Both the position numbers and the translations under genes were made by a program. Positions 23,477 to 28,219 of a stretch of DNA of 39,086 bases are shown piece after piece. The first letter of the stretch is position 1. Every line of letters starts with the position of its first letter. Where the stretch lies: IMG/VR virus record IMGVR_UViG_2541047917_000011. One strand, written 5' to 3'. The notes beneath the pieces were generated by a model, which did not search any database, was not told the DNA's origin, and saw only the letters and a program-made list of their open reading frames with translations. Origin of the DNA: a virus (Duplodnaviria; Heunggongvirae; Uroviricota; Caudoviricetes).

Positions 23477-24463
23477 CTATTTAAGAATAAAACGGTATTT
23501 ACTGTCAGGAGTGCTTTGCTGATCAAGTAGCAGTGAACGACATGGAGCAGTCAAAACCCGAGCATAACTACCATCAGGGCTTATGTTAATGTAACAAACC
23601 TTGCCCTTAACACTATAATTTTCGGGGACGGATGCCTTTGCTGATACAGTAAATTTAAGGGTATGCCAGCCCGTTTTTTGCTTGTAGCTTGAAACCGAAT
23701 GGAAATCATCTGAGTACTTATTTAACCCTGGAAACATGCTGCGCAGTGCGGGGATGGAATCTTCTATTATTTTATCGTTGGTTTTAATGTTAAAAACGCT
23801 GGTTTCAGTAGAAGCTACTGCTTTGGCATTTCCCCATTTACCAGCGAACACAATCATTCCCACGAAAAATATTGCTACAAGAACTAACACTCCCCCCAAC
23901 ACTACTACATGAGGCTTCCGGCTTCTGGTTGGTACAGTTGCGACTGATTTTGCACCGCTTTCCGATGGAGGTGATAGAGTTTTACTCTCATCACGAATAT
24001 TCAGCAGATCATCAAAATAACCAAACACAGCCTGCAACTGCTCTTTGTCTAGGCCTTTAAGATGGGTTGTACCGAAATGCTTCAGACAGTATCTGTCACG
24101 GTCAAGACGATACCCAGGGTCAGTAAGCGCCATTATTTTGCTGACCAGAAGATTACAGTCCTTCATATTCTGGATCTGTTGTGCATATCTCTGAAGGATC
24201 TCAACCGCACCATGATAATCAGCCGCAGTCATTTCATTAACTGTTTTGGTATTAAGTTTCGTGTGGATCGTCATCCATAGCTCGCGCTTACTTTCCCCCA
24301 GATCAACCAATTCATCCATCAATCTGTGTAAATCGCGTTTTTGCAGCAACGAAATTGGTTGCTGGGCCGAAGGAAGTATGTCAGCAGAATAGTTATGAAT
24401 GGTAACATCACCGCTGACAACGTTACCCACATCCCCGTTAACTGTTTGCTTCTCTTTACTCAT
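23477..24463 (-). CDS. Single-pass membrane protein, unknown function, translationally coupled to repressor
   Basis: 328 aa; start ATG overlaps repressor stop (ATGA); N-terminal cytoplasmic domain, TM helix (VVVLGGVLVLVAIFFVGMIVFAG), C-terminal extracytoplasmic domain. Confidence 0.55.
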   Translation of the reverse strand: MSKEKQTVNGDVGNVVSGDVTIHNYSADILPSAQQPISLLQKRDLHRLMDELVDLGESKRELWMTIHTKLNTKTVNEMTAADYHGAVEILQRYAQQIQNMKDCNLLVSKIMALTDPGYRLDRDRYCLKHFGTTHLKGLDKEQLQAVFGYFDDLLNIRDESKTLSPPSESGAKSVATVPTRSRKPHVVVLGGVLVLVAIFFVGMIVFAGKWGNAKAVASTETSVFNIKTNDKIIEDSIPALRSMFPGLNKYSDDFHSVSSYKQKTGWHTLKFTVSAKASVPENYSVKGKVCYINISPDGSYARVLTAPCRSLLLDQQSTPDSKYRFILK

Positions 24464-24885
24464 CTTCTCTTGGTATTTTTGTTCATTATTCCACCTGTTC
24501 CTATGGTTACGTTACCTTTGATAACATTCCCCAGAACATCTCCATGAATAACCTGTTCCGCCCGTTCTCTGGAGGAGCCAGTAGTCAAGGCCGACAAAAC
24601 TGAACCTTTGACCTGTAATGGTGCCTGCCGGTAGTGCTGCAGTAACTCCATTTCATCACGTGATAAAGTTATACCTGATGACTCCCCGGTAAGAATGAAC
24701 TGTACATTGGCCCCAATTCTTGCAAAGGCTGCAAGTAACTCACCTCCGGGAACAGCAACCCCTCGTTCATATTTCCCCCACATTTCTCTTGAAACGCCAC
24801 AAAGGGCTGCTACTTCAGCCTGCTTGAGTGATAACCGCGAACGCTCAGCTTTGAACCGCGACGCGCAAAGAGAATCAAAATTCAC
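24460..24885 (-). CDS. Prophage repressor, XRE-family HTH
   Basis: HTH_XRE pattern (RLSLKQAEVAALCGVSREMWGKYERG); GTG 24885 with GAGG RBS preferred over ATG 24921, which would bury the early promoter inside the gene. Confidence 0.65.
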   Translation of the reverse strand: MNFDSLCASRFKAERSRLSLKQAEVAALCGVSREMWGKYERGVAVPGGELLAAFARIGANVQFILTGESSGITLSRDEMELLQHYRQAPLQVKGSVLSALTTGSSRERAEQVIHGDVLGNVIKGNVTIGTGGIMNKNTKRR

Positions 24886-24895
24886 ATAAACCTCA

Positions 24896-24924
24896 TTGAC
24901 AATGAGAACAATAGTTCTCATAAT
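24896..24924 (+). promoter_or_regulatory. Early promoter: -35 TTGACA (24896-24901), 17-bp spacer, -10 CATAAT (24919-24924), with 20-bp palindromic operator ATGAGAAC-AATA-GTTCTCAT (24902-24921) in the spacer
   Basis: Read directly from sequence; sits 48 bp upstream of the ner-like ATG and between divergent repressor and early genes. Confidence 0.55.
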
Positions 24925-24971
24925 CTATCACATATAAAACAAACATCATTGCATCAACAAAGGAGACAACA

Positions 24972-25160
24972 ATGACTTCCGAACAAGTTAAAAATCTCTT
25001 CCGTCAGCGTGGTATCACGTTTACCCGCTGGGCCGAAGAACACGGCTACAGCCGCAATGAGGTCTATCGTGTTCTCAATGGACAGACCAAAGCTCGTTAC
25101 GGCAAAGCCCATGAAATTGCCGTAAAACTGGGATTAAAACCCACGTCAAATGCGGCATAA
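24972..25160 (+). CDS. Small DNA-binding regulator at the Ner/Cro position
   Basis: 62 aa basic HTH-like protein; AGGAGA RBS; first gene of the early operon. Confidence 0.6.
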   Translation: MTSEQVKNLFRQRGITFTRWAEEHGYSRNEVYRVLNGQTKARYGKAHEIAVKLGLKPTSNAA

Positions 25161-25212
25161 ATTTTCCACATATGCAACAGGTTATCACATATTGCAAAAA
25201 TGGAAATGTGAC

Positions 25213-25521
25213 ATGAGTAAAGTAAATATTTCCAGTTCTGGGACCCGCATCCTACGTGTACTCAAAGCTCTACGCGGTCATGCTCTGAACGGTGTTTCTA
25301 ACGGTGAACTGGCATCAGCCCTGGGGGAGTCCCCGGCGAATATCAATCGAGCACTTAATACCCTTATTGAAGAGGGACTGGCCATGAAATTAGAGAACGG
25401 ACGTTTCGCACCGGGAATCCAGTTACTACAGATCGCCATGGCTCACAGTCACGAGATGGCGCGTGCACAGGATCGTATTAACGAAATCAACCAACGAGTT
25501 ATTTCAGGTAGTCGTTTGTAA
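25213..25521 (+). CDS. IclR-type winged-helix HTH protein (DNA-binding domain only)
   Basis: TRILRVLKALRGH...NGELASALGESPANINRALNTLIEEGL resembles IclR N-terminal domains; start chosen at internal ATG 25213. Confidence 0.5.
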   Translation: MSKVNISSSGTRILRVLKALRGHALNGVSNGELASALGESPANINRALNTLIEEGLAMKLENGRFAPGIQLLQIAMAHSHEMARAQDRINEINQRVISGSRL

Positions 25522-26449: not shown

Positions 26450-28219
26450 ATGAATGCTGCCCTGACTGAACGACTGGTTTATGTCGCCCGCGCGGCACGT
26501 GACGCGGGGCATGGTAAACGCGGTGCAATATACGACGCTGCCTGTGCTGAACTTGGCATGTCCCGCGCCACTCTGCTGCGCAGGCTGAAGGAGGTCTCTG
26601 TGACTGATAAACGCAAAAAACGCGCCGATGCCGGGCGCAGCGCCCTGACCCGCGACGAAGCCGCGCTGATATCTGCCACACTGCGTGAGGCCACCCGCAA
26701 GAACGGTAAGCGTCTCTATTCCATCGCAGATGCAGTGGAAACCCTGCGGGCTAACGGCTTTATCACCGCAGGCAGAACAGATGAAACCACCAGTGAGTTT
26801 TTCCCGTTGTCTGAAGATGCCATCAGCCGTGCTCTGCGTAACTATGGCCTGCACCCGGAACAACTGGATGCCCCTGCACCACATACCGAAGTGGCCAGTC
26901 TGCATCCCAATCATGTCTGGCAGATTGACGCCTCACTCTGCACGCTTTACTACCTGAGCAATGGACATAAAGGGCTGCAGGTGATGGACAGCGCGAAGTT
27001 CTACAAGAACAAGCCCGCTAACCTTGCCCGTATCGCCAGTGACCGTGTGTGGAGTTACGAGATTACCGACCATGCCAGCGGCTGGATTTACGTTGAGTAT
27101 GTGACGGGCGCGGAATCAGGTGAGAACCTGTGTTCTGTGCTTATCAACGCCATGCAGGAGCGTGGCGGCGCAGACGTGCTGCACGGCGTGCCGAAAATAC
27201 TCTATCTCGACCCCGGCTCGGCAAACACCGCGGGTATGACGAAAAACATGTGCCGCTCACTGGGCATCGACCTGATAGCGCACAAGCCGCATAACGCCCG
27301 CGCCACCGGACAGGTGGAAAAGGCGCGTGACATTATCGAACGCAAGCTGGAGCCGGGTCTGAAGTTCCGGCCGGTTCACAGTCTGGAAGAACTCAACGCG
27401 CTGGCCGCGAAATGGCGCAGCCACTTTAACGCCACGGCTGTTCACAGCCGCCACGGTAAAACCCGCACGGATATCTGGCTGAAGATTACTGCTGAGCAGC
27501 TGAAAAAAGCGCCTTCCGTTGAGGTATGTCGTGAACTGGCTGTGGCGGCACCAGAACTCCGCAAAGTCACGCCAAAACTTCGTGTCTCGTTCCGGGGCAC
27601 TGAATTTGACGTATCAACGGTACCGGGCGTACTGGTTGGTGAAAAACTGATGATTACCCGTAACCCATGGCGCAGCGATGTGGCACAGGTGGTTCTGACC
27701 GGTGAGGACGGCCACGAGACGTTCTTCCTGGTCGAAGAGGTCAGAAAGAACGAGTTTGGCTTTGCTGAAGGCGCGGCGGTATTTGGCGAAAGTTACAAAG
27801 CCCTGCCGGAAACCCCGGCACAGATGGCGGCAAAAGAAACCGAAGCGCTGGTTACCGGTACAGACAACGCCGCAGATGCAGCCGCCGCACGCAAGGCGAA
27901 GGCGCTGCCGTTCGGCGGGCGGCTTGACCCGTATAAACATATCGACGACACCACACTTCCGGCCTATATGCCGAAGCGTGGTCAGGCCTCTGACGTACGC
28001 GGGCCGCGCACTGAACAACGTCCCATGACTCATGTGGAGGCCGCGAAAGCCCTGCGCGATAAGTTCAGCGCCGACGGCCTTACCTGGACGCCGGAACATT
28101 ACCGCCAGTTAACGGCACAGTACCCGGACGGCGTACCGGAAGCCGCACTGGATGAAGTCATGGCCACGCTGACCACACCGGCCCGCAGCAGTGTTATCAG
28201 CATTGTTAACGGCAACTGA
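26450..28219 (+). CDS. DDE transposase, rve (integrase catalytic core) family; not MuA-like
   Basis: 589 aa; N-terminal HTH, catalytic-core-like WQID ... YLDPGSAN ... E spacing. Confidence 0.85.
   Translation: MNAALTERLVYVARAARDAGHGKRGAIYDAACAELGMSRATLLRRLKEVSVTDKRKKRADAGRSALTRDEAALISATLREATRKNGKRLYSIADAVETLRANGFITAGRTDETTSEFFPLSEDAISRALRNYGLHPEQLDAPAPHTEVASLHPNHVWQIDASLCTLYYLSNGHKGLQVMDSAKFYKNKPANLARIASDRVWSYEITDHASGWIYVEYVTGAESGENLCSVLINAMQERGGADVLHGVPKILYLDPGSANTAGMTKNMCRSLGIDLIAHKPHNARATGQVEKARDIIERKLEPGLKFRPVHSLEELNALAAKWRSHFNATAVHSRHGKTRTDIWLKITAEQLKKAPSVEVCRELAVAAPELRKVTPKLRVSFRGTEFDVSTVPGVLVGEKLMITRNPWRSDVAQVVLTGEDGHETFFLVEEVRKNEFGFAEGAAVFGESYKALPETPAQMAAKETEALVTGTDNAADAAAARKAKALPFGGRLDPYKHIDDTTLPAYMPKRGQASDVRGPRTEQRPMTHVEAAKALRDKFSADGLTWTPEHYRQLTAQYPDGVPEAALDEVMATLTTPARSSVISIVNGN

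Follow-up and report, generated by a model that had tools for sequence, protein, structure and literature searches.

The stretch of DNA analysed here, 39,086 nucleotides from a virus of the class Caudoviricetes (IMG/VR record IMGVR_UViG_2541047917_000011; called the window throughout), carries around positions 24,464 to 25,212 an immunity switch in which a leftward repressor gene, c, faces a rightward early operon. A palindrome, termed O1, fills the spacer of the early promoter, Pe, and a second, weaker dyad, O2, lies upstream of it. The comparative evidence that the palindrome is the operator of the divergent repressor is very strong, since its sequence changes with the DNA binding domain of the repressor and not with the genes on the other side. 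The model as a whole, in which the c protein would act on O1 and O2 to silence Pe, has in our estimate a probability of roughly 85%.

The window is a prophage of Escherichia coli, and copies with 100% identity are present in many sequenced chromosomes. A search of 5,426 genomes with a 2.1-kb query gave a match in 634 of them, and at least 80% of the query was covered in 125. Repressor c is a helix-turn-helix (HTH) protein encoded leftward. Rightward follow genes for a ner-like protein of 62 amino acids, an IclR-like protein of 102 amino acids and a DUF3102 protein, and then, still downstream of Pe, an rve transposase and an AAA ATPase (AAA_22), so that the divergent repressor and early operon are laid out as in Muvirus. 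The order, with the IclR-like HTH and DUF3102 genes preceding the transposase, is the same in the phages PhiKM, KP12 and Ps59. The nearest phage records are Escherichia phage PhiKM, which is classed as a Bcepmuvirus, and Klebsiella phage KP12; Burkholderia phiE255 and the Pseudomonas B3-type phages are farther away. Because of the gene order and these nearest records, the region is the repressor/early-operon junction, i.e. the immunity switch, of a BcepMu/B3-type transposable prophage.

A first-pass annotation of this DNA had proposed a near-consensus early promoter with a 20-bp inverted repeat in its spacer, arranged for occlusion by a repressor. Both elements are present at the proposed positions (Table 1). 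Pe, with TTGACA and CATAAT separated by 17 bp, agrees with the consensus at 11 of 12 positions. It is the sole promoter-like match between 24300 and 25700, and neither strand of the entire window has another sigma-70 match of 11/12 or better, where shuffled sequences have 0.4 on average. In almost every repressor cluster among the relatives, the -35 element is kept 76 nt before the ner ATG, together with the 17-bp spacer. We infer that transcription from Pe starts at about 24930-24932. Another palindrome, CTCATTG-A-CAATGAG (perfect 7+1+7, 24892-24906), is centred on the -35 element; relatives do not keep it, it includes the c Shine-Dalgarno sequence, and it was rejected as a regulatory site.

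The O1 sequence, ATGAGAAC-AATA-GTTCTCAT, is a perfect 8+4+8 inverted repeat that is unique in the window at up to three mismatches (any match was seen in 12 of 100 shuffles). It overlaps the lytic promoter as a dyad-symmetric operator of an XRE/HTH_3 repressor is expected to do, and the idea of a repressor-occlusion operator finds strong support in silico. The length originally assigned to it requires correction. The two bases between the -35 element and GAGAAC vary in relatives (AT, TA, AA, TT or TG), and the outer CAT of the right arm is the start of the Pe -10 element; therefore, the predicted operator core is GAGAAC-N4-GTTCTC (24904-24919), which is 16 bp and not 20 bp long. The four central bases are A/T-rich and variable among relatives.

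The assignment of O1 to the c protein is based on two comparisons. The first used 80 viral contigs that encode relatives of the ner-like protein (69-100% identical). Upstream of these related ner-like genes, there are about 30 unrelated or distantly related repressor clusters, and each of them has its own dyad in the same spacer. The palindrome reads GCTCATAATTATGAGC in PhiKM, and examples from other clusters are TGCTCATAATTATGAGCA, TATCCCATTTATGGGATA, ATATACACGATTGTGTATAT, TGTCTAATTTTTTAGACA, GGTATAAATTTATATACC and AGTGTAATAATTACACT. Over 31 distinct combinations, identity of the operator window is correlated with identity of the repressor HTH (Spearman 0.50) and not with identity of the ner-like protein (Spearman -0.055). 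Pairs with at least 80% identity in the ner-like protein and less than 45% in the HTH have an operator identity of 0.30, which equals the background. For pairs with less than 80% identity in the ner-like protein and at least 60% in the HTH, the value is 0.68. The homology between the window and PhiKM begins exactly at 24920, which is the seam between operator and leader.

The second comparison used 53 contigs that encode relatives of the repressor itself. Among them are 44 distinct loci with the recognition helix GVSREMWGKYERG, in repressors that are 40-100% identical overall (the reference sequence in the searches, 24460-24876, lies three codons inside the GTG-start protein described below, which does not affect the results). 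GAGAAC-N4-GTTCTC, with at most two mismatches, is found in 40 of the 44 loci, and nearly all of these 40 keep the frame TTGACA-NN-GAGAAC-N4-GTTCTC-ATAAT. The leader and the first early gene are completely different between the loci, the gene product being of the BcepMu gp16 type, truly Ner-like, or one of several unrelated proteins. The operator sequence thus follows the recognition helix, as is expected for repressors of the XRE/HTH_3 type.

It could be argued that O1 instead serves the ner-like protein as a Cro-like site, or that it acts as an RNA hairpin in the c leader; a leftward transcript that began to the right of the palindrome could indeed fold it into a hairpin of 8 bp. However, the operator sequence tracks the repressor HTH and ignores the ner-like gene. 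Moreover, the copies of O2 repeat the half-sites in imperfect dyads, as would suit recognition by a protein and not a hairpin. We consider both explanations of O1 highly improbable.

O2, AAGAGAAT-CAAA-ATTCACAT, had been overlooked in the first-pass annotation. It agrees with O1 at 12 of the 16 specified positions (four mismatches). About one match of this quality is expected per 39 kb, and the only other site in the window that comes as close is at 27120. When each of 38 distinct operator types is compared with its own O1, the best match after O1 itself lies 28-34 bp upstream in 31 of them. The binomial P for this clustering of offsets is about 1e-41, and about 1e-27 if just 25 types are taken as independent. 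Of 40 loci with repressor helix GVSREMWGKYERG, 36 carry GAGAAY-N4-rTTCAC 32-35 bp upstream of O1. Judged by these alignments, O2 is a second, weaker operator and a family-wide feature.

Two further candidate operators did not withstand scrutiny. The site at 27120-27139 (GAGAACCTGTGTTCTG; GAGAAC-CTGT-GTTCTG) lies in the transposase gene, where the encoded peptide GENLCS is conserved, and it is a coding coincidence because it is also present in the hetero-immune phages PhiKM and KP12. A conserved third operator just 3' of the -10 element was rejected as well, as the alignment columns there are variable among loci with the same repressor. Two loci, L141 and L142, have an operator-like second site, GAACTTAAATTCTC, about 20 nt downstream of the -10 element, and the usual upstream O2 is missing in them.

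The c protein matches HTH_31 (30.7 bits, cut-off 27) and HTH_3 (23.3 bits, cut-off 23). Its N-terminal domain resembles the DNA binding domains of P22 C2 (E 1.2e-4) and of the 434 repressor (E 0.019), and this likeness in fold fits a dimer on a 16-bp dyad. Homology to the Mu c protein was not detectable (BLASTP E 1.2). In the PGAP/RefSeq annotation, c starts from an ATG at 24921, which falls within O1 and lacks a Shine-Dalgarno sequence. A GAGG stands at a suitable distance before the GTG at 24885. The frame of the annotated ATG is closed by a TGA in the relatives L040 and L068, and both loci retain the GTG together with a Shine-Dalgarno sequence. As read from these alignments, the real c protein most likely has 141 amino acids and starts from the GTG, and O1 would therefore be non-coding. 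The best candidate for a leftward c promoter is an extended -10 element, TGaTAGATT, in which TG and TAGATT are constant and the intervening base is A, T or G among the enterobacterial relatives. As a separate observation, the C-terminal tail of c (RAEQVIHGDVLGNVIKGNVTI, 24460-24669) resembles the N-terminus (KEKQTVNGDVGNVVSGDVTI, 24400-24463, minus strand) of the product of the next gene (BLASTP E 2e-5). This gene encodes a 328-amino acid protein of unknown function and overlaps c by 4 nt.

The proposed mechanism is predicted from sequence comparison. A c dimer would bind O1 in the Pe spacer, with the right arm of the site reaching into the -10 element, and would thereby keep RNA polymerase off the promoter. 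A second dimer would occupy the weaker O2, three helical turns upstream and just beyond the -35 element, probably in cooperation with the dimer on O1. Since c transcripts must cross both sites, their occupancy probably also limits the expression of c. Upon loss of the repressor, Pe would fire, and the genes for the gp16-type ner-like protein, the IclR-like protein, the DUF3102 protein, the transposase and the ATPase would be transcribed.

Several points weigh against this model. The pairs that enter the covariation analysis are not phylogenetically independent. O2 lies within coding sequence, so that its conservation may be partly codon-driven; the counterpoint is that every repressor type has its own O2. 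A canonical leftward promoter for c was not found by the promoter scan. The c protein has no match to Peptidase_S24, and its C-terminal 70 residues are without a Pfam match; it thus lacks the C-terminal peptidase domain of SOS-cleavable repressors like lambda CI or LexA. Finally, a literature search retrieved no binding or transcript-start data for this phage or for any enterobacterial phage of the BcepMu type.

Table 1. Features of the repressor/early-operon junction (coordinates refer to the window)
Feature	Position	Strand	Remarks
c, immunity repressor, 141 amino acids, XRE/HTH_3 type	24460..24885	-	GTG start 24885..24883
O2, AAGAGAAT-CAAA-ATTCACAT	24868..24887	.	predicted weaker operator; over c start codon and codons 2-6; 34 bp upstream of O1
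c Shine-Dalgarno sequence, GAGG	24891..24894	-	read from sequence; GGAG or GGGG at the same place in relatives
Pe -35, TTGACA	24896..24901	+	promoter scan; position and spacer kept in relatives
O1, ATGAGAAC-AATA-GTTCTCAT	24902..24921	.	predicted main operator; fills Pe spacer; covaries with repressor HTH; kept with helix GVSREMWGKYERG
Pe -10, CATAAT	24919..24924	+	its CAT is the end of the O1 right arm
Candidate leftward c promoter, extended -10 TGaTAGATT	24922..24930	-	overlaps Pe -10; predicted
TATCACATAT copy 1	24926..24935	+	exact; spans predicted Pe start
CATCATTGCATCA leader block	24944..24956	+	most deeply conserved part of ner leader; best candidate for gp16 site
ner-like first early gene, 62 amino acids, BcepMu gp16 family	24972..25160	+	TIGR04111, 94.4 bits, cut-off 34; phrog_925
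Variant copy CACATATGCAA	25167..25177	+	read from sequence
Conserved block with TATCACATAT copy 2 (25183-25192) and Shine-Dalgarno sequence of IclR-like gene	25173..25212	+	invariant TTATCACATAT
IclR-like winged-helix gene, 102 amino acids, HTH only	25213..25521	+	phrog_1368

The name ner-like for the first early gene suggests a relationship that does not exist. The protein shows no similarity to Mu Ner (BLASTP E 6.7), and it matches neither HTH_35 nor SfsB, whereas Mu Ner matches SfsB. It is a member of the BcepMu gp16 family and not homologous to Mu Ner. A repeat inside it, GTTCTCAATG, was dismissed as a binding site, as it encodes the conserved peptide Arg-Val-Leu-Asn-Gly and is also present in the hetero-immune phage PhiKM. 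Some loci deviate from the arrangement in the window. In L002 (2281-2505), L004, L007, L010, L013 and L026, there is a second, unrelated 'ner' type of 74 amino acids, which has its own leader and overlaps the start codon of the IclR-like gene (ATGA) without a spacer; its hetero-immune variants again have a palindrome in the promoter spacer. In L039, L060 and L069, a divergent non-HTH open reading frame lies only 25-27 nt ahead of the gp16 gene (at 2501), and the promoter with TTGACA and palindrome is missing, which points to a different control arrangement for the same early module.

The IclR-like protein matches HTH_IclR (PF09339, 28.9 bits, cut-off 22) and has no match to the C-terminal effector domain of IclR, so that the resemblance concerns the HTH only. 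Its recognition helix, SPANINRALNTL, is invariant from Escherichia to Photorhabdus and reads SPSNITRAMQTL in a more diverged group of loci. The invariance suggests that the protein may have a conserved target somewhere in these phages.

Apart from the operators of the repressor, the first-pass annotation had drawn attention to a motif, TATCACATAT, which occurs at about 24926 and 25183 with a variant near 25166, and which, flanking the ner-like gene, was considered consistent with binding sites for the Ner/Cro-like or the IclR-like regulator. Two exact copies, at 24926-24935 and 25183-25192, and the variant, CACATATGCAA, were indeed found; there are no further copies in the window. The number of copies is by itself weak evidence, as 33 of 100 shuffles contain at least two copies with at most one mismatch, and chance has produced a further exact 10-mer repeat, CCATGAAATT, within the same 700 bp. 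The variant is not conserved in the Mixta or Erwinia loci, and Photorhabdus has TTATCAC in its place. It is conservation in relatives, and not the count, which argues that TATCACATAT is real and under selection, especially copy 2. The motif belongs to the early-gene module and is absent from loci that have the same repressor and another early module. Thus, it is not part of the system of the repressor.

The two copies differ in their conservation. Copy 1 reads TAWCACRYAT in relatives, and its mean pairwise conservation (0.75) is no higher than that of the rest of the leader (0.72-0.75). Copy 2 is part of a block, GTAACAGnTTATCACATATnGCAAAAAGGGG, in which TTATCACATAT is invariant in loci of Escherichia, Mixta, Erwinia, Buttiauxella, Trabulsiella, Photorhabdus and Xenorhabdus, at identities of the ner-like protein down to 65-70%. 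A second variant of the block, termed type 2, reads GTGTAACAGTGTTTCATATATAGAAAAGAGG (also given as GTTTCATATAT). The block is always located upstream of the IclR-like gene, either next to it or separated from it by one small inserted gene, and loci such as L125 and L130 have it despite a different gp16 helix and leader. The KP12 type and Ps59, in which the IclR-like gene overlaps its upstream neighbour, lack the block. In L127, copy 2 is present and copy 1 is not, which indicates that the copies are not an obligate pair. The two leaders can be aligned over about 45 nt in the window (p about 0.004), with p values of 0.02-0.6 in relatives. In type-2 modules, similarity between the two positions does not reach significance (p 0.06-0.6).

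Other signals were sought in the spacer between the ner-like and the IclR-like gene. The promoter scan reported no rightward sigma-70 promoter there, and by eye no conserved pair of -35 and -10 elements was seen. RNA structure was rejected, with no consensus base pairs in 14 diverse sequences and a fold of the window sequence that does not differ from shuffles (z -0.08). The dyad TGYAA-N7-TCACA was rejected as a general motif, as it is not enriched in the window. In a comparison made by eye only, TATCACATAT matched the binding sites of CRP, IHF and Fur poorly. The sequence TTTTCCACA (25162-25170) fits a relaxed DnaA-box pattern, TTWTNCACA, by eye, and is not conserved in relatives. In the Photorhabdus and Xenorhabdus loci (L016-L023), the spacer contains TTATCAC twice, 20 bp apart, at positions that correspond to TTTCCAC and TTATCAC in the window.

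The 47-nt ner leader as a whole is better conserved than the third codon positions of ner (0.625). Its most deeply conserved part is not copy 1 of TATCACATAT. It is the block that reads CATCATTGCATCA in the window; enterobacterial and Pseudomonas-type loci alike retain it as CATCWTTGCATCA, and loci with another gp16 helix have TTCGATCAAC or TTCGTAAC instead. Owing to this depth of conservation and to the change with the gp16 helix, CATCWTTGCATCA is a better candidate than TATCACATAT for the site of the gp16 protein. In the leaders of L057, L066, L073 and L077, at the place of 24938-24952 in the window, GCAA-N6-TTGC is changed to ACAA-N6-TTGT. This symmetric double change is compatible with a hairpin as well as with a small dyad site; the window combines the two forms as ACAA..TTGC.

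Several explanations of the two TATCACATAT copies have to be weighed. They may have no function in common. Copy 1 would then be part of the ner leader, comprising the start site and an unstructured A/C-rich leader, and copy 2 would be part of a translation-initiation or regulatory leader of the IclR-like gene, with the 10/10 identity a lineage-specific coincidence or the remnant of a leader duplication. The insignificant count and the other 10-mer repeat nearby agree with this view, and so do the alignment of the whole leaders, which is clear in the window and weak in relatives, and the presence of the block wherever the IclR-like gene has its own spacer. Nevertheless, TTATCACATAT is invariant across seven genera, which is tighter than a generic A/U-rich leader needs, and no part in translation is evident for GTAACAG..TTATCAC, the 5' half of the block. 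We regard this explanation as plausible, at clearly less than even odds. Alternatively, both copies could be the operator of the gp16 protein, which would bind on either side of its own gene and so turn off Pe and the leftward c promoter. The motif travels with the early-gene module and not with the repressor, and the gp16 protein cannot use O1, because hetero-immune phages have the same gp16 gene; it therefore needs a site in its own module. In addition, the best match between leader and downstream spacer in type-1 modules repeatedly maps to these two positions, and a CACA-rich motif at the start of the leader is found in 21-24 of 33 non-redundant gp16 leaders (shuffle maximum 18). Against this stand the unremarkable conservation of copy 1, the lack of similarity between the two positions in type-2 modules, the locus L127 with copy 2 only, and the loci L125 and L130, which differ in the gp16 helix and yet carry the downstream block. 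Furthermore, the conservation of CATCWTTGCATCA goes deeper, and its sequence varies along with the gp16 helix. A role of both copies as gp16 operator is thus unlikely, and the flanking pair of sites for one regulator, as originally put forward, is not supported.

On the minus strand, both copies contain TGaTAnnnT, which might represent the extended -10 elements of two leftward c promoters, one proximal and overlapping Pe, the other distal, beyond ner, and directing a transcript antisense through ner. Copy 1 reads TGATAGATT, with the constant TG and TAGATT mentioned above, and copy 2 reads TGATAACCT in the window and either TGATAATCT or TGATAATTT in other loci; when the blocks are aligned, position -9 varies and G(-14), A(-11) and T(-7) do not. 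Such an arrangement has a precedent in phage Fc02 of the B3 family, where the repressor transcript in lysogeny comes from a distal promoter, pC1, beyond ner and gene 10, and a proximal promoter, pC2, overlaps pE (PMC9936078). In the window, Pe is clear, and the minus strand offers just candidates that resemble extended -10 elements. A -35 element is lacking, the scan gave no minus-strand promoter, T(-12) is missing from the type-2 block, some variants lose TG, the block tracks the IclR-like gene and not the repressor, and Pseudomonas-type leaders are without the motif, so that a pair of leftward promoters seems doubtful. As to the IclR-like protein, it might bind the copy 2 block, and possibly copy 1, as its own operator. 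This would account for the constant place of the block, which for every gp16 type lies immediately before the IclR-like gene or is separated from it by one small inserted gene. The proposal is difficult to reconcile with the helix SPANINRALNTL, which is identical in type-1, type-2 and block-less loci and thus shows no covariation with the site. A protein with 91-94% identity is present in KP12-type phages, which have no block, and the window has no further copies of the motif. We consider binding by the IclR-like protein improbable.

Taken together, the early module may have a control layer of its own, in which the gp16 protein would act as an analogue of Ner with CATCWTTGCATCA, with or without TATCACATAT, as its operator, and/or the two TATCACATAT copies would be proximal and distal leftward promoters; we put this forward tentatively, as a minority view. 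If the leftward promoters were real, lysogens would make repressor from a transcript that runs antisense through the ner-like gene, as in Fc02.

The use of these findings is mainly practical. They put right the repressor gene start that is annotated in hundreds of E. coli genomes and define, for a widespread repressor family, the operator consensus GAGAAC-N4-GTTCTC that goes with helix GVSREMWGKYERG. BcepMu/B3-type transposable phages share one fixed promoter scaffold, into which about 30 or more pairs of repressor and operator have been slotted. The pairs form a catalogue of candidate orthogonal repressors and promoters, and they predict mutual immunity among these common prophages. In a literature search, neither this operator nor BcepMu-type immunity regions nor the function of gp16 turned up as the subject of a paper, so that the details are new. 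The kind of system is thoroughly familiar: conceptually, it is a known type of phage immunity switch, which is unusually clearly documented by comparison and opens no new question.

Among the known systems, the lambdoid immunity regions of the P22 C2 and 434 cI type are similar in the N-terminal domain of HTH_3 type, in the overlap of operators with the early promoter, in having more than one operator, and in the A/T-rich, variable centre of the dyads, which presumably is not contacted by protein. Like the region described here, they come in many hetero-immune specificities that are exchanged as cassettes. They differ in having three adjacent operators instead of two that are about 34 bp apart, with O1 inside the spacer between -35 and -10. 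Moreover, the S24 autopeptidase domain is absent here, the phage replicates by transposition, and the partner protein is of the gp16 type with a predicted site of its own, whereas Cro shares the operators of the repressor. In P22, the Arc operator in Pant is a repressor site centred in the promoter spacer that blocks polymerase. The geometry of O1 is the same; however, Arc is a ribbon-helix-helix tetramer, so that this is a functional analogy alone, without homology.

The B3 family of Pseudomonas phages (B3, Fc02, Ps59) has homologous gp16-type ner-like, IclR-like and DUF3102 genes and a short divergent intergenic region, and Ps59 has the same layout of TTGACA, palindrome and ATTATT. In contrast to the window, these phages have other repressor specificities, their ner gene is directly followed by other genes, so that there is neither a spacer between ner and the IclR-like gene nor TATCACATAT, and the distal pC1 lies beyond the second gene. 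RNA-seq of Fc02 after inactivation of the repressor revealed firing of pE upstream of ner, and overlapping pE and pC2 promoters with a distal pC1 have been reported (PMC9936078).

The c/Ner/Pe-Pcm switch of Mu likewise has a leftward repressor and a rightward early operon that encodes a small DNA binding protein, followed by transposase and ATPase. In Mu, the small protein, Ner, has its own site, distinct from the operators of the repressor. Unlike in the window, where a simple XRE dimer is predicted to act on two dyads, the Mu switch involves a winged-helix repressor related to MuA, three operator clusters and IHF. The switch described here is thus Mu-like in its layout and P22/434-like in the chemistry of repressor and operator, and it is a member of neither family.

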